Shown: positions 20-7,745 of the stretch, one piece after another
How positions within the stretch are numbered: the stretch's first letter is position 1
Layout: every line of letters begins with the position of its first letter
Source: Candidatus Micrarchaeota archaeon
GTDB lineage: Archaea > Micrarchaeota > Micrarchaeia > Anstonellales > Bilamarchaeaceae
DNA: 64,000 nucleotides
NCBI GenBank assembly: GCA_964435235.1
Contig: CAYSXZ010000047.1
Coordinates: forward strand, 4,594 to 68,593
Reading direction: 5' to 3'
Notes under the pieces: generated by a model
What the model was told of the DNA's origin: nothing
Seen by the model: only the letters and a program-made list of their open reading frames with translations
Databases searched by the model: none
Translations under genes and position numbers: made by a program

Positions 20-2566
20 ATGGAAATTGCCGAGCTGCTTAAGGCACTAGAGACGGATGGTGAGAGGGGCCTATCCGCAAAGGAAGTCGCTGCAAGGCAG
101 AGGGTATATGGTAAAAATGTCATACCGGAGAAGGACAGAAGAAATATTATTCAGATTCTCCTTTCGCAATTTAACAATCCCTTCATCTACATTCTTCTTA
201 TAGCAGCAGTTATCGCTTTCTTTACCGGAGAAGTTACAGAAGGAACAACGATAATTGTGCTTATCCTTATGAGCGGTTTTCTAAGTTTCTATCAGGAGTA
301 CCGCTCTGAAAATGCAATAAACGAACTGAAAAAATATCTCTCCCCACGTGCCACTGTTATAAGAGACGGCCAGCAGATGCAGATTCGCGCAACCGAACTC
401 GTTCCCGGGGATATTGTGATTCTTCATATAGGGGACGTCGTTCCAGCGGATGTAAGACTAATAAAAGAGGAAGACTTACGAGTAAATGAAGCATCAATAA
501 CAGGAGAATCGAAAGACGTAGAGAAGACATCAAATCCCTTGAGAATAGAAAACCCAGCACCACATGAACTTTCGAATTATGCGCTTATGGGCACGACTAT
601 TACGTACGGGTTCGGAAAGGGAGTCGTAATAGCTATAGGGCAGGGTACGTTTTTTGGAAAGACAGCAACCCTTTTGAGCGCAAAGATACCGGAATCCGAT
701 TTTCAGGCCAATCTCAGAAATTTTAGTAGCATGATACTTAGAGTAATAGTAATATTCACCGTTGTCATCTTCCTCTCGAATGCCATCTTGAATCACGGAA
801 TAATAGAATCCCTCTTGTTTGCATTGGCGATAGCAGTTGGCATAACCCCAGAGATCCTTCCTGTGATAACAACAATCTCGCTCTCCAACGGCGCTCTTCG
901 AATGGCAAGAAAGAAGGTTGTTGTGAAAAAGCTAGCAACTATAGAAGACATAGGGAATATGGATGTTCTATGTATGGATAAAACAGGCACCCTCACCGAA
1001 CCAGGGATGCAGCTCGAAGGAGGGGTGGACCCAGAAGGAAGTCCTACTAAAGAGTTGGTACTCTACGGAATGCTCTGCAACAACGCAAACGTTATGGGAA
1101 AGAAGACGACCGGAAATGTGTTCGATGTTGCGATAGTCGAGTACGCGAAAGAGAAACCTAAGGAAACTGAGGGATACGCTGAATACAAACGAATCGATGA
1201 CATAGAGTTCGATTTCGAGCGAAAGAGGATGAGTGTAGTTGTTGAAGGGAAGGAGAGAATGATTATTACGAAAGGAGAACCAGAATCTGTAATCTCTGTC
1301 TGCTCTCACGTTTCCATCAATGGAAAGGAGAGACCCATCAAAATACTGAAGAAAAAAATAATCAAGACGGTTCAGAGATTTTCAGAAGAAGGATACAGCC
1401 TTCTTGGGGTAGCCACAAAAGCCGTAGAGAAAAAGGAGGATTACACGAAAGAAGATGAAAATGGGTTGACGCTGCATGGTTTCCTTCTATTCAAAAGTCA
1501 GCCAAAGAAGTCTGCTGCAAAATCAATAGTTGAGTTGAAGGAGCTAAATGTAGCGCTCTGTCTTCTGACTGGAGATGACCCTGCTGTGACAGCAAAGCTT
1601 TGTAAGGATGTCGGGCTTGAGATAAATGGCGGAAGGGTTGTAGTCGGGAAGGAGATCGAAGGGATGAGCGATGAAGAGCTTCAGAATGTTGTGACAAAAT
1701 ATAACGTATTCGCAAGAATTACGCCCATTCAAAAGGTTAGAATAATAGAAGCGCTGAGAAGGAACGGCCATCTTGTCGGATTTCTTGGTGATGGGGTAAA
1801 TGATGCTCCCGCCCTTCGGCTTGCGGATGTTGGTATATCCGTGGACACAGCGCTCGATGTTGCGAGAGAAGCAGCAGATATAGTTCTTATGAATAAAAGC
1901 CTTGAGGTGATTGTTGATGGAGTGCGCCAAGGCAGGGAGACATTCTGTAATGTAACGAAATACATATTGAATACCATAAGTGCGAATTACGGCAACATGT
2001 TTACAATTGTGGTTGCATCGTTCTTCCTTCCGTTTATTCCATTGCTCCCATCGCAAATCCTCCTCAACAATTTCCTGAGCGACATTCCTCTTCTCACGAT
2101 TTCAACAGATAAGGTTGATAGAGATTTTGTTAAAAAGCCGAGAAGATGGAGCATGAAGATGATATCTAGATTCATGGTTTACTTCGGTATGATAAGCACC
2201 ATTTTTGATTTTCTTACTATTTGGATATTCCTTTATCTATTTGGTGTCAGCGCTGCACTCTTTAGAACATTGTGGTTCTTAGAATCTTCTTTATCAGAAA
2301 TTGCTGTGACATTCATAATAAGAACGAGGCTTCCGTTCTATAAAAGCATGCCGAGCAAACTTCTCTTAATCGCTTCTATGTTCGTTGCCTCTGTTTGTCT
2401 CTTCGTGGTATCAGCCCCAGCGATAGGGGACTATTTCCAATTCGTTCCACCTCCAACTGAGTATCTACTCGCGGTTGGAGGGATAGTGCTAGCCTATTGC
2501 CTCTTCACAGAAATCGTAAAGCATCTCTTCTTTAGACATTATACAGAATTTGCAGAGCATTACTGA
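20..2566 (+). CDS. P-type cation-transporting ATPase (MgtA / type III-like)
   Basis: 848 aa; phosphorylation motif DKTGTLT (CMDKTGTLTE), hinge motif GDGVNDAPAL, N-terminal cation-ATPase-N-like segment, multiple hydrophobic TM segments at both ends. The sequence around PEILPVITTISLSNGALRMARKKVVVKKL resembles Mg2+-importing MgtA, but substrate is not certain. Confidence 0.85.
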   Translation: MEIAELLKALETDGERGLSAKEVAARQRVYGKNVIPEKDRRNIIQILLSQFNNPFIYILLIAAVIAFFTGEVTEGTTIIVLILMSGFLSFYQEYRSENAINELKKYLSPRATVIRDGQQMQIRATELVPGDIVILHIGDVVPADVRLIKEEDLRVNEASITGESKDVEKTSNPLRIENPAPHELSNYALMGTTITYGFGKGVVIAIGQGTFFGKTATLLSAKIPESDFQANLRNFSSMILRVIVIFTVVIFLSNAILNHGIIESLLFALAIAVGITPEILPVITTISLSNGALRMARKKVVVKKLATIEDIGNMDVLCMDKTGTLTEPGMQLEGGVDPEGSPTKELVLYGMLCNNANVMGKKTTGNVFDVAIVEYAKEKPKETEGYAEYKRIDDIEFDFERKRMSVVVEGKERMIITKGEPESVISVCSHVSINGKERPIKILKKKIIKTVQRFSEEGYSLLGVATKAVEKKEDYTKEDENGLTLHGFLLFKSQPKKSAAKSIVELKELNVALCLLTGDDPAVTAKLCKDVGLEINGGRVVVGKEIEGMSDEELQNVVTKYNVFARITPIQKVRIIEALRRNGHLVGFLGDGVNDAPALRLADVGISVDTALDVAREAADIVLMNKSLEVIVDGVRQGRETFCNVTKYILNTISANYGNMFTIVVASFFLPFIPLLPSQILLNNFLSDIPLLTISTDKVDRDFVKKPRRWSMKMISRFMVYFGMISTIFDFLTIWIFLYLFGVSAALFRTLWFLESSLSEIAVTFIIRTRLPFYKSMPSKLLLIASMFVASVCLFVVSAPAIGDYFQFVPPPTEYLLAVGGIVLAYCLFTEIVKHLFFRHYTEFAEHY

Positions 2567-3087
2567 GGTGGCTGATTATACTTACAGATACCAGCAAGCG
2601 TTTCGCTATTATTTGCCTTCACTACTATTTTTACAAAATCGTTCGCTGCAAATTCGTTTATTTTCATCCAGTCACCAAGAATCTTAAATGCATCTATCGC
2701 TGGAGGAAGATCATTTTGCATGTTAGCAAACATCAACCCAGATATTCTTAAGTAATTCTCCTTTTCATTTCCTTCAAAGTCGCCCGCAACATTTATTATT
2801 ACATTAAATAATTCTTCGTAATGTTGGTAAATGTCTGGCATAAGTTTCTTATCGATGTTCCTAAGTTTTTCGCTTAATGCATTGCTGAATGTTTTTCCCA
2901 GTATGCTGTATTTCTCAATCAATTCCTTTGCTTCTTTTGGCAACGGAATATCTACTAGCACTCTTTCTGTTAGGTTTGGTTGTAGTTGACTCCTTTTCCC
3001 GTTAGCCATCAAATCCCGCGGCACTACTACACAGTATTTTCCATTGTTTTTTCCATTATTATCTCTAGCGTTATTATTCCTATTCAT
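2560..3087 (-). CDS. hypothetical protein (175 aa); C-terminal 24 aa encoded by 73-bp direct repeat copy A
   Basis: Intact ORF with Asn/Lys-rich N-terminus; C-terminus FVKIVVKANNSETLAGICKYNQPPQ is encoded by the repeat at 2567-2639. No recognisable domain. Confidence 0.5.
   Translation of the reverse strand: MNRNNNARDNNGKNNGKYCVVVPRDLMANGKRSQLQPNLTERVLVDIPLPKEAKELIEKYSILGKTFSNALSEKLRNIDKKLMPDIYQHYEELFNVIINVAGDFEGNEKENYLRISGLMFANMQNDLPPAIDAFKILGDWMKINEFAANDFVKIVVKANNSETLAGICKYNQPPQ
2567..2639. repeat. 73-bp direct repeat, copy A (about 96% identical to copy B)
   Basis: ggtggctgattatacttacagataccagcaagcgtttcgctattatttgccttcactactatttttacaaaat matches 3135-3207 with 3 mismatches. Confidence 0.9.
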
Positions 3088-3134
3088 GTTATAGTTTGTG
3101 TCTCATAATATTTATAAATGTTTCAACATACTTA

Positions 3135-3207
3135 GGTGGCCGATTATACTTACAGATACCAGCAAGCGTTTCGCTATTATTTGCCTTCGCTACTATTTTT
3201 ACAAAAT
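3135..3207. repeat. 73-bp direct repeat, copy B
   Basis: Near-identical to 2567-2639. On the minus strand it lies immediately after, and in frame with, the TGA stop of the 3209..3838 ORF. Confidence 0.9.
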
Positions 3208-3208
3208 T

Positions 3209-3838
3209 TCATCTATTCAAAGTATGCTTATTGGATGCACCAAGCTCAACCCCTCTTTTTTCAGCATTTCTTTCTATCTTCCTTGCAGCTTCAATAACCT
3301 CTTTTCCTGAAGGAACATCACGATAACCAAATTTACCCCTGTTCCGCATCTGCTTCTCATCGCCATCCGTTACCAAACCAGCTTCTTTTACAGCTTCATA
3401 AGGAGAGTTATTATAATAATTACTAAGTAAACCCCGTAACCTGTTTTTATTAAAATCTTCCTGTGTTAAATCTCTTGGGTCTTTCTTCAGTTTTTCAACC
3501 AACATTTTAACTACTGTTACTCTGTCGGATACGTCTTTCCACTTTGCGAAATAAGTTATGTATCCGCTATTAAGAAGTTGCTCTGCCTTTCCCTGTTCGA
3601 GCAGCCCTTCGATTTTTCTTACTGCAATGGTTTTCATCTCTTTTCTGGAGAGGCCGACGTTGTATATTATTCTCTCTTCTCTTTCCCTGCTCGAATAATC
3701 CTCAGCAAATTCCATCGTCTGCTTTGGGGTAGCATCCTGCCCGAATTCCTCTATAGCCTTGTCAGTAAGCTTCCAGTTGCCTTTCTTTATGAAGTATAAT
3801 GCAAGCCAGCGTTTGAATTCGAATGATTCTTTAGTCAT
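3209..3838 (-). CDS. hypothetical protein (209 aa); has a paralogous fragment at 19221-19406
   Basis: Intact ORF. The internal segment PKQTMEFAEDYSSREREER recurs as a fragment (PKQAMEFAENDSSREREDR) at 19221-19406 with clear nucleotide similarity. TGA stop at 3206-3208 is followed in frame by a repeat-encoded tail. Confidence 0.5.
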   Translation of the reverse strand: MTKESFEFKRWLALYFIKKGNWKLTDKAIEEFGQDATPKQTMEFAEDYSSREREERIIYNVGLSRKEMKTIAVRKIEGLLEQGKAEQLLNSGYITYFAKWKDVSDRVTVVKMLVEKLKKDPRDLTQEDFNKNRLRGLLSNYYNNSPYEAVKEAGLVTDGDEKQMRNRGKFGYRDVPSGKEVIEAARKIERNAEKRGVELGASNKHTLNR

Positions 3839-3938
3839 TGTGTTTATTATTGTAAGAATATATATTTAAATATTGTTGAGGTGATGGTTTTTAGACTGCT
3901 AATCGTAGACCGATGGGATAAAGGTGGCATTGTGAAAA

Positions 3939-3991
3939 TAGTCGCAAAAAGTTCCAAATTTGATCAAAAAATAGTCGAAAAACCGACTATT
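3939..3991. repeat. about 52-bp direct repeat R1, copy A (upstream of first COG1373 ATPase)
   Basis: agtcgcaaaaagttccaaatttgatcaaaaaatagtcgaaaaaccgactatt; second copy at 5207-5258. Contains stem agtcg...cgact. Confidence 0.85.
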
Positions 3992-4020
3992 TTAAAAAAT
4001 ATTCGGTTTAGAATAATTCC

Positions 4021-5241
4021 ATGGAAAAACCTGATATAAGCCAACTAAGGATAATCGCGCTCTCGCTACTGAATTCTGTGGATAAGCTACGGCGAAGACA
4101 CATCGTTGGAAGGTTGCTTTCTTCGCTACAAACAAAACCACGAATCAAGCTTCTTAGGGGATTTAGAGGCGTTGGTAAAACTACAGCAATGCTTCATGCA
4201 TTTGGTATGATGAAGGAAAAAGCGTTATATTTTTCCGCAGATAATCCAATTGTTAAGAGCCATGGAATATACAACACAGGTAAGGATGCTATAAAAAATG
4301 GATTTGGTTTGCTTTTCATAGATGAGGTTCATACCTATCCAGAATGGAGAGCCGAGATAAAGGCACTGCACGACGAGTTTCCTTCACTTATCATCGTTGC
4401 AAGCGGGAGTGCACCACTTGCCCTCGTCCCTGAAAGAAGGGAAGAATTGATATGCCTCCATGAGATGGATATGGAAGAATCAGCATTTATTGGAACTGGA
4501 AAGAGCGTATTCGCAGACGAAGAATGGCGAGACAGGGAAGAGGCAATGAGATTCATAGCTGCAAATCAAGAAATAGCAAACACCTTTCACAGCTATTCTC
4601 GCGTGGGAGGCTTCCCTCTTTCATTTGAATTGGAGGAAGGAAGAGCGCTAGACGCGATATACAACTCTATAAGAAAGTCCATACGTGAGGATGCCGTATT
4701 CTTCTTGAAGATGTCGAAAGAAAAGATCTTTGCGATGGAAAACCTCTTGAATTTTCTTGCAACATCCAAGCCTGGAGAACTAAGTCTTACTTCGCTTTCT
4801 TCCACACTACGGGTTTCTAAAACAGTAGTCTACGAAATAATCGATAGTCTTTCTGCGATGGAAATCGTGCGTGTTATCAGACCCTACGCTGGTGGGGCTG
4901 CGCTTGTTCGAGCAGAGCCCAAACTACTATTCTTCCATCCAAATATGCGATTTGCGATATGCCGTCAACTTGGAAGACAGGCGGACGAAGGCGCAGTGAG
5001 AGAGGAACTTGCGGTATTCGGCCTCTCAGAACGCGGTTGGACTATCCATACTATTAAGGGAGAGAAGAAATCACCAGACTATGTAATAGAAAAAGGAAAA
5101 GAAAAACTGATTGTTGAAATAGGTGGGGAAAGAAAAACACGTATCCAACTTAAAGGATTTCCGGAGGGACTTGTAATTGGGGAATATCAGCTTATTCCAC
5201 TGCTTTTAGTCGCAAAAAGTTCCAAATTTGACCAAAAATAG
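4021..5241 (+). CDS. AAA+ ATPase, COG1373/DUF4143-type
   Basis: 406 aa; Walker A GFRGVGKTT, Walker B LLFIDEVH, wHTH-like middle region, C-terminal DUF4143-like segment. C-terminus LLVAKSSKFDQK overlaps repeat R1 copy B. Confidence 0.75.
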   Translation: MEKPDISQLRIIALSLLNSVDKLRRRHIVGRLLSSLQTKPRIKLLRGFRGVGKTTAMLHAFGMMKEKALYFSADNPIVKSHGIYNTGKDAIKNGFGLLFIDEVHTYPEWRAEIKALHDEFPSLIIVASGSAPLALVPERREELICLHEMDMEESAFIGTGKSVFADEEWRDREEAMRFIAANQEIANTFHSYSRVGGFPLSFELEEGRALDAIYNSIRKSIREDAVFFLKMSKEKIFAMENLLNFLATSKPGELSLTSLSSTLRVSKTVVYEIIDSLSAMEIVRVIRPYAGGAALVRAEPKLLFFHPNMRFAICRQLGRQADEGAVREELAVFGLSERGWTIHTIKGEKKSPDYVIEKGKEKLIVEIGGERKTRIQLKGFPEGLVIGEYQLIPLLLVAKSSKFDQK

Positions 5242-5258
5242 TCGAAAAACCGACTATT
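5207..5258. repeat. direct repeat R1, copy B
   Basis: Near-identical to 3939-3991 (gaccaaaaatag vs gatcaaaaaatag); encodes the C-terminus of the 4021..5241 ATPase. Confidence 0.85.
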
Positions 5259-5289
5259 AAAAAGGGTCAACAAATTATTTGTTTTAAGG

Positions 5290-5340
5290 TGGTCAATAAA
5301 TTGACCGAATTTGCTATTTTTCGGTCAATAAACTGACCGA
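5290..5340. repeat. about 50-bp direct repeat R2, copy A, containing palindromes ggtcaatAAattgacc and cggtcaataaactgaccg
   Basis: ggtcaataaattgaccgaatttgctatttttcggtcaataaactgaccga; second copy at 6583-6633. Confidence 0.85.
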
Positions 5341-5370
5341 TTTATAAAACTTTGCTTGCTATAGTGATAC

Positions 5371-6591
5371 ATGGGTGTTATTGAATTTCTTAAGGAAGAG
5401 CGCTTTCTGATGGAAGATGCACTTCGTGGATATGTAAAGGAGACAAAGCGTGACGCTTACAGCCAGCTTGGGAAAGCAAACATAGTAGTATTACATGGCT
5501 TGCGTGGAACTGGAAAGACAACCATTATTGCGCAGAAATACTTTGAGAGTGATAAAAGGCTTGCTATTCACGGCGAGCATCTTAAGCTTGCAGGTTATAC
5601 TATAAAGGACCTTATACCAGTTATGAGGTACGTCTTGCCTGAAGGTTATCTTTTCATAGACGAAATAACAAAACTAAGGACATGGCCGGAGGAAATAAAG
5701 ATTCTTTCGGACCTCTATCCAAAAATAAAAATAATATTAACAGGATCGTCTGCTGTGGATCTTCAGAATGCGAAGCTGGTATTGGCACGACGAGCAGTTT
5801 TCGCAACTCTTTCTCCACTTTCCTTCAGCGAATTTTTACGAATAAAGTATGGAAAACAATTGCTCTCTTTTGATCCGTTTGCGAAAGACCCACTCACACA
5901 TGCCTTAAGAGTGGAGATGGATTTTAGAGAAAAAATAAAGGAGGATCCTGTAGATGTACTCTCAGGATACAAAAAGCAAAACCTTCCGTATCTTATCGAA
6001 AGGCCTGCTTCAACTGTGTTGGATATGATAGACAGAGTGATCTACGAAGATATAGGTACAACTGGCTCCTTTACTGAAGATGTAATCGAAAAATTCTGGC
6101 CGCTTCTAAGATTGCTTGCACTTTCTGAGAAAATCAGTTATGACAATCTTTCTAAGGATCTTGGAGTAGGAAAAGGAACTGTAATAAAAATGATTAACTT
6201 TCTTTCATTGGCGCACGTAATTAGACCTGTTTTCCCCTATGTTTTGGGAAAAGGAAAGGTAAGAAGAGAACCAAAGTATCTCTTTGCATCCCCCGTAATA
6301 AGGGAAGTCATACTGAATGTTCTTGGCGAGAGGGAGCGGGGAAGAGGATTAGGACGAGAGGATATGTTTGCAATGCATATCAGCAATGAATTGTTCTATC
6401 TGAAAACAGGACCTGATTATGTATGGAGGGATGGTATATTTGAGGTCGGAGGACCAAACAAGGGTTCTGAGCAGTTTAAAGGTCTGAAAATAAAAGGAAG
6501 AAAATTCATAATCCATGAAGGCGTGGAGATCCTCTCTGGTGATGTGTTGGCAGTACCATTCTATATCTTCCTTTTGCATAATAGTCAATAA
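5371..6591 (+). CDS. AAA+ ATPase, COG1373/DUF4143-type (paralog of 4021..5241)
   Basis: 406 aa; Walker A GLRGTGKTT, Walker B LFIDEIT; same architecture as the upstream paralog. Confidence 0.75.
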   Translation: MGVIEFLKEERFLMEDALRGYVKETKRDAYSQLGKANIVVLHGLRGTGKTTIIAQKYFESDKRLAIHGEHLKLAGYTIKDLIPVMRYVLPEGYLFIDEITKLRTWPEEIKILSDLYPKIKIILTGSSAVDLQNAKLVLARRAVFATLSPLSFSEFLRIKYGKQLLSFDPFAKDPLTHALRVEMDFREKIKEDPVDVLSGYKKQNLPYLIERPASTVLDMIDRVIYEDIGTTGSFTEDVIEKFWPLLRLLALSEKISYDNLSKDLGVGKGTVIKMINFLSLAHVIRPVFPYVLGKGKVRREPKYLFASPVIREVILNVLGERERGRGLGREDMFAMHISNELFYLKTGPDYVWRDGIFEVGGPNKGSEQFKGLKIKGRKFIIHEGVEILSGDVLAVPFYIFLLHNSQ

Positions 6592-6633
6592 ACTGACCGA
6601 ATTTGCTATTTTTCGGTCAATAAACTGACCAAA
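6583..6633. repeat. direct repeat R2, copy B
   Basis: agtcaataaactgaccgaatttgctatttttcggtcaataaactgacc, near-identical to 5290-5340; overlaps the stop of the 5371..6591 gene. Confidence 0.85.
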
Positions 6634-6677
6634 ACCCTACTCGACAATCTTTTAAACCTAAAACTCCCTAGTCCTTC

Positions 6678-7745
6678 ATGATAGTCGATAACCCTCTTGT
6701 TGACGTGGATAAGGATGGTACAATAAACTGCAAGGTATGCGCAAGGCGATGCAGAATACCAAAAGACAGAACAGGATTCTGTGGCATAAGAAAGAACATA
6801 GATGGCAAACTCGATCTCATAGTTTATGGAAGGCCTTCTGCCTTTGGGATAGATCCGGTTGAAAAGAAGCCACAATTTCATTTTCTTCCTGGTACGACCG
6901 CTTACTCTCTAGGGACGTATGGCTGTACTTTTATGTGTAAGTTTTGCTGCAACTGGGAGCTTGCGCAGGCAATACGGGAGCATCTTCCGCTCGATTCTTG
7001 GATCGACCTTCCACCAGAAAAAGCAGTGAAGGATGCAAAGCTTAACAACTGTGCTTCGATGGCTTATACCTATAACGAACCGGCAATATGGTACGAGTAT
7101 CATAGAGACATGGGAAGGATCGCGATACGAGAGGGAATATTTAACATCCTTGTAACAGATGGCTACGGAACTCCGGAATTTTGGGAAAAGGCATCGGAAT
7201 ATATCCATGCAGCGAGCATCGACCTTAAGGGTTTCACAGAGAAGCTTTACAATGAGCTAACAGGAGCGCGACTCGCTCCTGTCTTGGATTCCATCAAGAC
7301 AGCAAAAAGATTAAGTAAAAAACGTGGGCTTTGGGTGGAGATAACAAGTTTGGTAATTCCTGGATGGAACGATAGCGAAGATGAGATACGTCAGGAGACC
7401 GAATGGCTTAAGGAGATAGACCCTGAGATGCCGCTTCATCTCATAGGCTTCTTTCCAAGTTATAAGATGATGAGCACTCCACCAGCAACTGCAGAAAAAC
7501 TTCTTTCGCTCAGAAAGATAGCGCTTGATGTCGGCCTTAAATACGTATACGTTGGAAATGTTTTAACCGAAGAAGGGGAAAACACCTACTGCCCGAACTG
7601 CAGTGAGATGTTGGTTCGTCGTGCCTGGTTTGCTTCAACCATCACAGACGCATTCGATGTAGAAAAATCAAAATGTAGAAACTGCGGGCAAAGGATTGCA
7701 GGGGTGTGGACAGTAGAACAGGCAAAGAGATTCAAAAAGGGATAA
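6678..7745 (+). CDS. radical SAM enzyme, PflA/AmmeMemoRadiSam-system-like
   Basis: 355 aa; N-terminal Cys-rich segment (CKVCARRC...FCGIRKN) followed by radical-SAM CxxxCxxC (CTFMCKFC); C-terminal CPNC...CRNCG zinc-ribbon-like pair. Confidence 0.6.
   Translation: MIVDNPLVDVDKDGTINCKVCARRCRIPKDRTGFCGIRKNIDGKLDLIVYGRPSAFGIDPVEKKPQFHFLPGTTAYSLGTYGCTFMCKFCCNWELAQAIREHLPLDSWIDLPPEKAVKDAKLNNCASMAYTYNEPAIWYEYHRDMGRIAIREGIFNILVTDGYGTPEFWEKASEYIHAASIDLKGFTEKLYNELTGARLAPVLDSIKTAKRLSKKRGLWVEITSLVIPGWNDSEDEIRQETEWLKEIDPEMPLHLIGFFPSYKMMSTPPATAEKLLSLRKIALDVGLKYVYVGNVLTEEGENTYCPNCSEMLVRRAWFASTITDAFDVEKSKCRNCGQRIAGVWTVEQAKRFKKG

Follow-up and report, generated by a model that had tools for sequence, protein, structure and literature searches.

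In integrons, a gene cassette carries one attC site at its 3' end, shares only a 7-bp core with its neighbours, is usually promoterless and has an IntI/attI platform nearby. Excision during development is known from elements like the fdxN element of Anabaena, in which XisH takes part. The PDC-S01 and PDC-S27 families, in which an ATPase is fused to a PD-(D/E)XK nuclease, are abundant in archaea, enriched in DPANN and regarded as putative defence systems with validation pending (PMC12988326), and the same ATPase plus PD-(D/E)XK families have been listed as abundant, DPANN-enriched defence candidates (PMC12988326; PMC3424549). Literature searches on PDC-S01/COG1373 and PDC-S27 returned no mention of flanking repeats, dyads or unit-like mobility. 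Here we describe two adjacent genes of this kind, gene 1 and gene 2, in a 64-kb stretch of contig CAYSXZ010000047.1 (the window) from a small-genome DPANN archaeon (Micrarchaeota), both of them in the region 3700-6900. Each gene lies between its own pair of direct repeats, termed R1 and R2 respectively, and each gene and the two repeats around it probably form a discrete single-gene cassette of ~1.3 kb that is, or recently was, mobile. The protein family itself has been known, though solely as a defence candidate awaiting characterisation, and the repeat-bounded double-dyad cassette architecture, its polymorphism and its concerted evolution appear to be undescribed.

Element 1 (3939..5263, forward strand, ~1.32 kb) comprises the left repeat, a putative promoter, gene 1 and the right repeat. 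The left copy of R1 (3939..3996, forward strand) contains a half-site-like ATAGTCGCAAAA at 3938-3949 and a full dyad, ATAGTCG-AAAAAC-CGACTAT, at 3971-3990, the two being 33 nt apart, and is abutted by an A/T-rich TATA-like box, TTTTAAAAAATATT (3990..4003, forward strand), which was read from the sequence and has a presumed promoter function. Gene 1 (4021..5241, forward strand, 406 aa, ATG at 4021) encodes an AAA_14 ATPase. The right copy of R1 (5207..5263, forward strand, dyad at 5238-5257) covers the final 11 codons and the stop codon of gene 1 and, as the earlier note on this sequence had read, encodes the C-terminus of the protein, with the tail VAKSSKFDQK followed by the stop. The two copies aligned over 3939-3991 (53 nt) and 5207-5258 (52 nt) with 96% identity and one 1-nt indel. 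The dyad of R1, ATAGTCGAAAAACCGACTAT, had two exact occurrences in the 64-kb window (3971-3990 and 5238-5257) and none in shuffled sequence.

Element 2 (5290..6633, forward strand, ~1.34 kb) has the same order of left repeat, putative promoter, gene 2 and right repeat. The left copy of R2 (5290..5340, forward strand) includes two dyads, GGTCAAT-AA-ATTGACC at 5291-5306 and CGGTCA-ATAAAC-TGACCG at 5322-5339, with centres 32 nt apart and a T5 run in the spacer, and is abutted by a TATA-like box, TTTATAAAA (5341..5349, forward strand), likewise read from the sequence and of presumed function, the ATG of gene 2 (5371) being 30 nt past the start of the box. Gene 2 (5371..6591, forward strand, 406 aa) has the architecture of gene 1, and the right copy of R2 (6583..6633, forward strand, dyads at 6583-6598 and 6614-6631) overlaps its last codons and stop codon. 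Aligned over 47 nt (5292-5338 and 6584-6630), the R2 copies had one mismatch and 98% identity. Dyads of the GGTCAATAAAYTGACC type were confined to 5291, 5323, 6583 and 6615 in the window, with five matches observed against 0.07 expected, a count reached in 0/100 shuffles. The coordinates, repeats and palindromes of both genes were thus found to be as the earlier note had given them. The window contained no further copies of R1 or R2 besides those at genes 1 and 2, and they are not the ubiquitous intergenic repeats that the note had named as the observation that would speak against it. R1 and R2 showed no sequence relationship to each other. The 31-nt spacer between the two cassettes includes a perfect palindrome, AACAAAT-T-ATTTGTT (5269-5283), which is similar to the outer arms of the repeats of other cassettes (L009 and L003a; L numbers denote contigs and loci in this study) and may be a remnant of another element.

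Both proteins matched Pfam AAA_14 (PF13173) above the gathering score, with E values of 8.2e-17 for gene 1 and 2.2e-21 for gene 2, and the PDC-S01 model of PADLOC, which has no curated cutoff, with E values of 5.6e-22 and 4.4e-24. A match of gene 2 to DUF4143 (PF13635) was sub-threshold, at 20.4 bits against a cutoff of 28.1. Gene 1 encodes the Walker A motif GFRGVGKTT and the Walker B motif IDE, both with invariant residues, and a C-terminal domain of the PD-(D/E)XK fold (~323-395). The residues D353, E366 and K372 of this domain were invariant across the clade, and the nuclease is for that reason probably active. Gene 2 keeps the PDY...FEVGGPNK motif in alignment to gene 1. In the AlphaFold 2 model (pLDDT 87.6) the AAA+ module is accompanied by a helical lid and a winged helix (~256-304), and the C-terminal domain is small and of the alpha/beta type. 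Foldseek searches with the whole chain returned RuvB, ORC/Cdc6, DnaA and STAND NTPases (Avs4, CED-4) at low TM-scores, which are generic neighbours only, and the nuclease fold was visible only with the C-terminal domain modelled alone, when it resembled Hjc and VRR-NUC. Pfam and NCBIfam gave no Orc1/Cdc6, RuvB or Hjc family match, AAA_14 and DUF4143 being the only families found.

Relatives of gene 1 (73-80% aa identity) and of gene 2 (65-78%) were nearly all from metagenome-assembled genomes (MAGs) of Micrarchaeota and other DPANN archaea and from metagenomes, and the nearest species representative was a Candidatus Anstonellales MAG (L003, 75%). Loci were retrieved with the gene-1 clade only, a mixed alignment of gene-1 and gene-2 proteins being without a conserved stretch, and gene-2 relatives were sampled incidentally. 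In a self-comparison of 36 genome loci and ~36 metagenome loci with DPANN homologues, most homologues were surrounded by a repeat pair of their own, 43-62 nt long, with 86-100% identity within the pair and a spacing of 1205-1302 nt. Such brackets were present around 41 of 62 AAA_14-homologue open reading frames (ORFs) in the DPANN loci; among the remaining ORFs of 250 aa or more, the count was 4 of 186, and at least three of these four were other ATPases. Once genes more than 95% identical had been collapsed, the local alignment of upstream and downstream regions scored beyond the 99th percentile of mismatched pairs for 32 of 53 DPANN homologues, and the score distribution was bimodal. A set of 44 bacterial homologue loci, mostly Bacteroidota, which the same retrieval had yielded, served as a negative control and gave no clear bracket. 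The window proteins match PDC-S01 models and a second bracketed family matches PDC-S27, and the bacterial members examined differ from them in being without repeats. One bacterial case, L043 (Saprospiraceae), was doubtful; it has a 40-nt repeat (5815-5854 and 7258-7297, 97.5%) that flanks the gene at a distance of ~130-150 nt on either side and has no obvious dyads.

The second bracketed family has a Pfam ATPase_2 domain (PF01637) and an MCM_C-like winged helix, matches PADLOC PDC-S27 and has dyads of its own (L087 1573-2738 and L094 6107-7253). Its repeats are 31-34 nt long, and in each of them a 17-nt dyad, ACTATCG-GG-CGATAGT, occurs twice in tandem. Their geometry is that of the AAA_14 cassettes: a TATA-like box follows the upstream copy, and the downstream copy lies at the stop codon. 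Cassettes were found side by side in the window and in L003, L004, L013 and L038. No relatives were detected among IMG/VR viral contigs. When all retrieved loci were scanned for additional solo repeats of the known types, nothing convincing emerged, the matches being repeats of neighbouring or truncated elements.

The anatomy of the repeats was shared widely. In ~20 relatives the upstream repeat runs up to a TATA-like box, with the ATG located 23-40 nt past the repeat end. The start of the downstream repeat lies at -34 to +40 nt relative to the end of the stop codon. The repeat sequence varies by sub-lineage, with half-sites that include GGTCG/CGACC, TTTCC/GGAAA, GGTCAAT/ATTGACC, TGTTCA/TGAACA and ACTATCG/CGATAGT, and the repeat types have a common plan of two ~18-bp dyads with arms of 5-9 nt and an A/T-rich centre of 2-8 nt. 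In 8/8 repeats with two perfect terminal dyads, including R2 of the window, the distance from one dyad centre to the other was exactly 32.0 nt, a spacing which would be the geometry expected of two winged-helix protein dimers on one face of the DNA. The suggestion in the earlier note of sites for a dimeric regulator is supported by this arrangement, in which two ~18-bp dyads per repeat, 32 bp centre to centre, fit a dimeric DNA-binding protein. We infer that the encoded protein binds these dyads and that it may also catalyse recombination or mobility; the repeats would most likely mark where the unit ends and also be bound by the protein that it encodes, with the upstream copy acting in addition as an operator. 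Nested palindromes of two half-site types, rather than equal dyads, were seen in L015 (5908-5965, TTTCCG...CCGACT / AGTCGG...CGGAAA) and L003 (4574-4625, TGTTCA..CCGACC / GGTCGG..TGAACA), and given these mixed palindromes half-sites may be read individually.

The boundaries of homology coincided with the repeats. Between elements on different contigs (dozens of pairs, 63-88% nt identity) homology extended to within a few nt of the outer repeat edges and no further, with median offsets of +1 to +2 nt from the start of the left repeat and 0 to -1 nt from the end of the right repeat. Element 1 compared with L003, L085, L086, L087 and L094, which have unrelated contexts (69-73% nt), was homologous from ~3936-3942 to ~5254-5258. 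Thirteen gene-1-clade elements (64-88% nt) had no common flanking genes within 4 kb by tblastx, with the exception of three same-locus pairs and of neighbouring ATPase cassettes, and occupied at least 9 genomic contexts. Two of the elements, L086 and L094, came from one metagenome and were 88% identical in different contexts. Syntenic sets were also found (L008/L010/L096, L019/L025 and L020/L021/L110), which indicates that elements can stay in place for a long time. Smaller indels were noted outside the cassettes. The loci L085 and L094 are 98% identical and differ by a ~205-nt indel (L085 3642-3858, L094 3847-3858) that ends 55 nt upstream of the left repeat, and L021, L110 and L020 have indels of 160-290 nt just outside the cassette.

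Presence/absence variants were found at two sites. L083, a Logan contig from SRR10519663, has the order of the 3' end of gene 1, the right R1 copy (R1b), the 31-nt spacer, a single R2 and a radical-SAM gene. It is without gene 2 exactly between the repeats, its left flank being that of the left R2 copy (R2a) and its right flank that of the right copy (R2b). At the second site, both flanks of L088 correspond to those of its orthologue L087 (75-80%), and L088 is without an entire repeat-bracketed element of the PF01637/PDC-S27 type, positions 1557-2757 of L087 being replaced by 15 nt in L088 (335-349) with no repeat remaining. Other 1-1.3-kb indels between syntenic loci (L008/L010 and L025/L006) were ordinary genes without repeats. 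Complete elements thus occur alongside a solo repeat and an empty site that is free of repeats, which is, as far as these contigs can be read, the population pattern of elements with terminal direct repeats of their own. Cassette-like mobility, which the earlier note had offered as an alternative, fits the comparative data on boundaries, contexts and presence/absence.

The two repeats of a locus also changed together. The loci compared were L008, L010 and L096, shown to be syntenic, and L095, assigned to the set through its matching repeats and immediate flanks. Dyad 1 was unchanged in all 8 repeat copies. The spacer between the dyads varied among the loci, yet within L095, and likewise within L096, the upstream copy had the spacer of the downstream copy. 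In every locus the tract of identity ended at the centre of dyad 2, where the upstream copy reads GGTCGGAAAA continued by TCGGAAAATTTATAAA and the downstream copy reads GGTCGGAAAA continued by CCGACC. The identity of spacers within a locus and the end of the tract at dyad 2 therefore indicate that the copies exchange sequence in place and that the exchanged tract is delimited by the dyads. A T>C change in L021 relative to L020 was likewise common to both L021 copies, and in L165, a strain variant of the window locus, the position of the R2 mismatch is T in both copies, which are thus identical, whereas R2a and R2b of the window differ (T/C).

A more specific proposal, which we regard as possible and put forward tentatively, is that the cassettes represent a new class of minimal DPANN mobile element, in which the product of a single gene, an AAA+/winged-helix/Hjc-like nuclease, would recognise a pair of dyads with a spacing of 32 bp within the ~50-bp terminal direct repeats of that gene and would drive excision, homogenisation and insertion without a known transposase or recombinase fold. 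As a coherent working model for the cassettes, whether or not they form such a class, the encoded protein would bind the dyads of both repeats, the upstream repeat doubling as a promoter-proximal operator, and its ATPase-winged-helix part would pair the two identical repeats. Strand exchange would occur in the tract between the dyads and the Hjc-like nuclease domain would resolve the joint, after which the gene would be excised, leaving a solo repeat, or the repeats would merely be homogenised through gene conversion. Insertion at a new site would bring both repeats along. Two repeats could be obtained from a circular form with one repeat if that repeat received a long staggered cut and the ends were then filled in; alternatively, a copy slightly longer than the unit could be inserted.

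A number of observations weigh against mobility of the cassettes and against this mechanism. Among the loci compared, no identical or near-identical copies were seen at two sites of one genome, and neither a circular form nor a target-site duplication was seen. Movement would be rare at best, because several elements are syntenic in genomes that are ~10-25% diverged. Repeats were absent from ~40% of the DPANN homologues and from essentially all of the bacterial ones, and with so many homologues lacking them they are not required for the role of the protein. The two empty sites disagree, one retaining a solo repeat and the other none, so that at least two processes would be needed. L083 is short, begins with adapter and spans a 37-nt exact repeat at k=31, and a low-coverage mis-join is therefore possible. 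Its positions 1-18 are the Nextera adapter sequence GATGTGTATAAGAGACAG, which suggests low coverage at that end of the contig; gene 2 at comparable coverage should branch the graph and break L083 at the repeat, and sample 3300010308 carries gene 2 (contig L165). PD-(D/E)XK enzymes hydrolyse DNA, and none of this fold is known to act in strand transfer by itself. Finally, the position of the upstream repeat beside the TATA box equally fits a plain autoregulatory operator.

This last point leads to the alternative that survives best, which we consider unlikely, namely that the repeats are purely regulatory. The upstream dyads would then form an autoregulatory operator at the TATA box of a defence nuclease that may be toxic, and the downstream copy would be a second operator (looping or roadblock), a terminator-insulator or both. 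The genes would have spread by generic horizontal transfer, the identity of the repeats would result from ordinary gene conversion and gene 2 would have been lost by an accidental deletion between repeats. Such an operator would account for the TATA-like box that the upstream repeat abuts in all cases, for dyads that are kept as spacers drift between orthologous loci and for the persistence of elements at syntenic sites, and it agrees with the listing of the family as a defence candidate and with the T4-T6 runs in the spacers. It leaves unexplained why homology stops a few nt from the outer repeat edges across unrelated contexts, why non-dyad spacers are identical in copies 1.27 kb apart and why orthologous loci differ in whether they have an entire repeat-gene-repeat unit, and it must allow for the bacterial and the ~40% of DPANN homologues that function without such sites.

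Mobilisation in trans is a second alternative and a distinctly improbable one. A tyrosine or serine recombinase of the host or of another element (Xer-, integron- or integrase-like) would act on the dyads as core sites and the ATPase-nuclease would be defence cargo. The short dyad arms (5-7 nt) around an A/T-rich centre of 4-8 nt are reminiscent of recombinase core sites, but the repeat types (GGTCG, TTTCC, GGTCAAT, ACTATCG) differ by sub-lineage and track the protein, which a single recombinase would not tolerate. The clustering of cassettes side by side in the five places listed above, the solo repeat that remains in L083 and the bracket around a neighbouring 175-aa ORF that is not an ATPase (described below) would be in keeping with such a recombinase, but the bracket is nearly restricted to ATPase-winged-helix genes and no integrase was called beside any cassette in the gene tables inspected, which did not amount to a systematic search of the loci. 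Integron cassettes, including those of archaeal integrons, are similar to the units described here in being gene-sized, in having an imperfectly palindromic site of ~50-60 bp and in often lying side by side in variable regions. In contrast to them, each gene here is both preceded and followed by a full site and is equipped with a TATA-like promoter of its own, while the type of site tracks the encoded protein. The called genes of the flanking contigs included no integrase, and the 64-kb window was not exhaustively searched for IntI. Integrative elements with attL/attR ends differ further, as the sole ORF between the repeats here encodes the AAA_14 protein and no recombinase, the unit being one gene of 1.3 kb, and as the identical tract of ~45-60 bp is element-specific rather than target-derived. 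A single repeat at the empty target site, as in attB, was kept by L083 (one R2), whereas the PDC-S27-type site of L088 keeps none and is empty without an att-like copy.

The earlier note had favoured a local tandem duplication of a COG1373 gene by recombination between repeats, with the upstream R1 as the relic 3' end of a lost family member. This is very improbable. The two paralogues do lie head to tail and the downstream R1 copy does overlap coding sequence, but the proteins were only 30% identical by BLASTP, the DNA similarity of the genes was not beyond chance, R1 and R2 are unrelated, and each gene has far closer relatives (to ~80% aa identity, with some at 78-81%) in other genomes and contexts, whereas the window contained no other copy. 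A bracket of own repeats is also found around single isolated homologues in many genomes. Such pairs are the rule in the clade and include cases in which the right repeat lies wholly beyond the stop codon, while the ORF of the gene-1 clade instead runs ~11 codons into it. The gene 1 tail within the right repeat was disordered in the model (pLDDT 37). The upstream R1 is therefore the left repeat of the element rather than a gene relic, since it is the gene-1-clade ORF that reads into the right repeat, where its tail is disordered. On the comparative evidence, genes 1 and 2 are two independent cassettes of different sub-lineages side by side and not a local duplication.

An assembly artefact, with strain variants joined through an overlap of k-mer length, has a negligible probability: the repeats of 47-79 nt are in the assembler k-mer range and metagenome contigs tend to break there, but they are inexact (the R1 indel and mismatches in R2 and in the 79-nt pair described below), the copies show evolutionary patterns of substitution, the brackets recur in independent assemblies of different samples, in dozens of MAGs and with different assemblers, and the arrangement of the window is itself not artefactual, because it recurs in two independent Joint Genome Institute (JGI) metagenome assemblies (L001 and L002).

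Three other described systems were compared with the cassettes. Long terminal repeat (LTR) elements are a structural and population analogy only. As in LTR elements, near-identical terminal direct repeats belong to the element, full, solo and empty forms coexist, and the two repeats of a cassette are closer to each other than to the repeats of sister elements. Unlike LTR elements, the cassettes have no reverse transcriptase, integrase or protease, and their repeats are ~50 bp rather than hundreds. The transcript of a cassette cannot regenerate the repeats, because the promoter is inside the element, past the left repeat. IS200/IS605 elements and TnpB-only derivatives resemble the cassettes in size (1.2-1.5 kb), in a single ORF of ~400 aa, in hairpins of the same orientation near the ends and in the lack of terminal inverted repeats. 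They differ in that the cassette protein is neither TnpA (HUH) nor TnpB (RuvC-like), its fold being AAA+, winged helix and PD-(D/E)XK, and in that the cassettes have long, near-identical double-dyad ends and not short, dissimilar LE/RE hairpins. Orc1/Cdc6 with its origin recognition boxes, and RuvB with Hjc/RuvC, share the combination of AAA+ and winged helix and, with binding predicted here, dyad boxes beside their own gene. The similarity to Orc1/Cdc6 is one of fold only (TM 0.2-0.3) without family membership, and direct repeats 1.27 kb apart flank the gene here instead of inverted boxes around an unwinding element.

Further identities were rejected. A diversity-generating retroelement was discarded, as there was no reverse transcriptase and the differences between copies were not adenine-specific, and an RNA element was discarded, as the repeats had no Rfam match and the upstream copy lies ahead of the promoter. 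The Rfam scan of the window found one tRNA and no other RNA family. A homing endonuclease gene, that is, a nuclease gene that splits its own recognition site and has no terminal repeats, does not correspond to these repeat-bounded genes.

The repeats offer a concrete candidate for the DNA ligand of orphan ATPase-nucleases, and the cassettes a possible new route for the movement of single genes in very small genomes. If the cassettes do form a new class of element, PDC-S01 and PDC-S27, which are among the most abundant defence candidates of archaea, would be selfish elements or descendants of such elements, and their 'embedding' in other loci would reflect insertion and not immunity. Caution is warranted in any case, as the abundance and 'embedding' of such genes may mean selfish spread, not immunity. 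The repeat brackets also explain breaks in metagenome assemblies at these genes.

A third bracketed gene adjoins element 1. A 79-nt direct repeat (2561-2639 and 3129-3207, 96%) surrounds a 175-aa ORF (2560-3087, reverse strand) in the geometry of the ATPase brackets, and a repeat search of the whole window showed that, low-complexity matches aside, its long direct repeats are these three adjacent pairs only. The upstream copy of the 79-nt repeat stops ~8 nt before a TTTATAAATA box and begins directly past the TGA stop of a 209-aa ORF (3209-3838, reverse strand), in frame with that ORF, and the final 26 codons of the 175-aa ORF make up the downstream copy. The copies have 3 differences, all of them non-synonymous. 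The 175-aa ORF is an ORFan unrelated to the ATPases, with a sole homologue in L163 (78%) in the same context by a P-type ATPase, and contig L163 ends ~90 nt upstream of this homologue. An exact-match look-up of the 209-aa neighbour gave no match, and look-ups of other neighbours added one informative contig, L165.

Contig ends fell at or beside R2, R1 or the 79-nt repeat in four cases (the ends of L001 and L165 and the starts of L002 and L163), and many Logan contigs with homologues were 1271-1324 nt long, the size that a unitig should have when a repeat exceeding k in length delimits it. In L003, a 232-nt direct repeat (2309-2540 and 4242-4473, 98.7%, spacing 1933 nt) lies beside the two ATPase cassettes of the Anstonellales MAG. 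The region at ~4000-7600 of L053, which has a Bacteroidia homologue, contains dense short interspersed repeats, AACGACAACTAGAACAACA and GGTTCCTCGC...GCTCGGAACG, with a sequence unrelated to the archaeal repeats.

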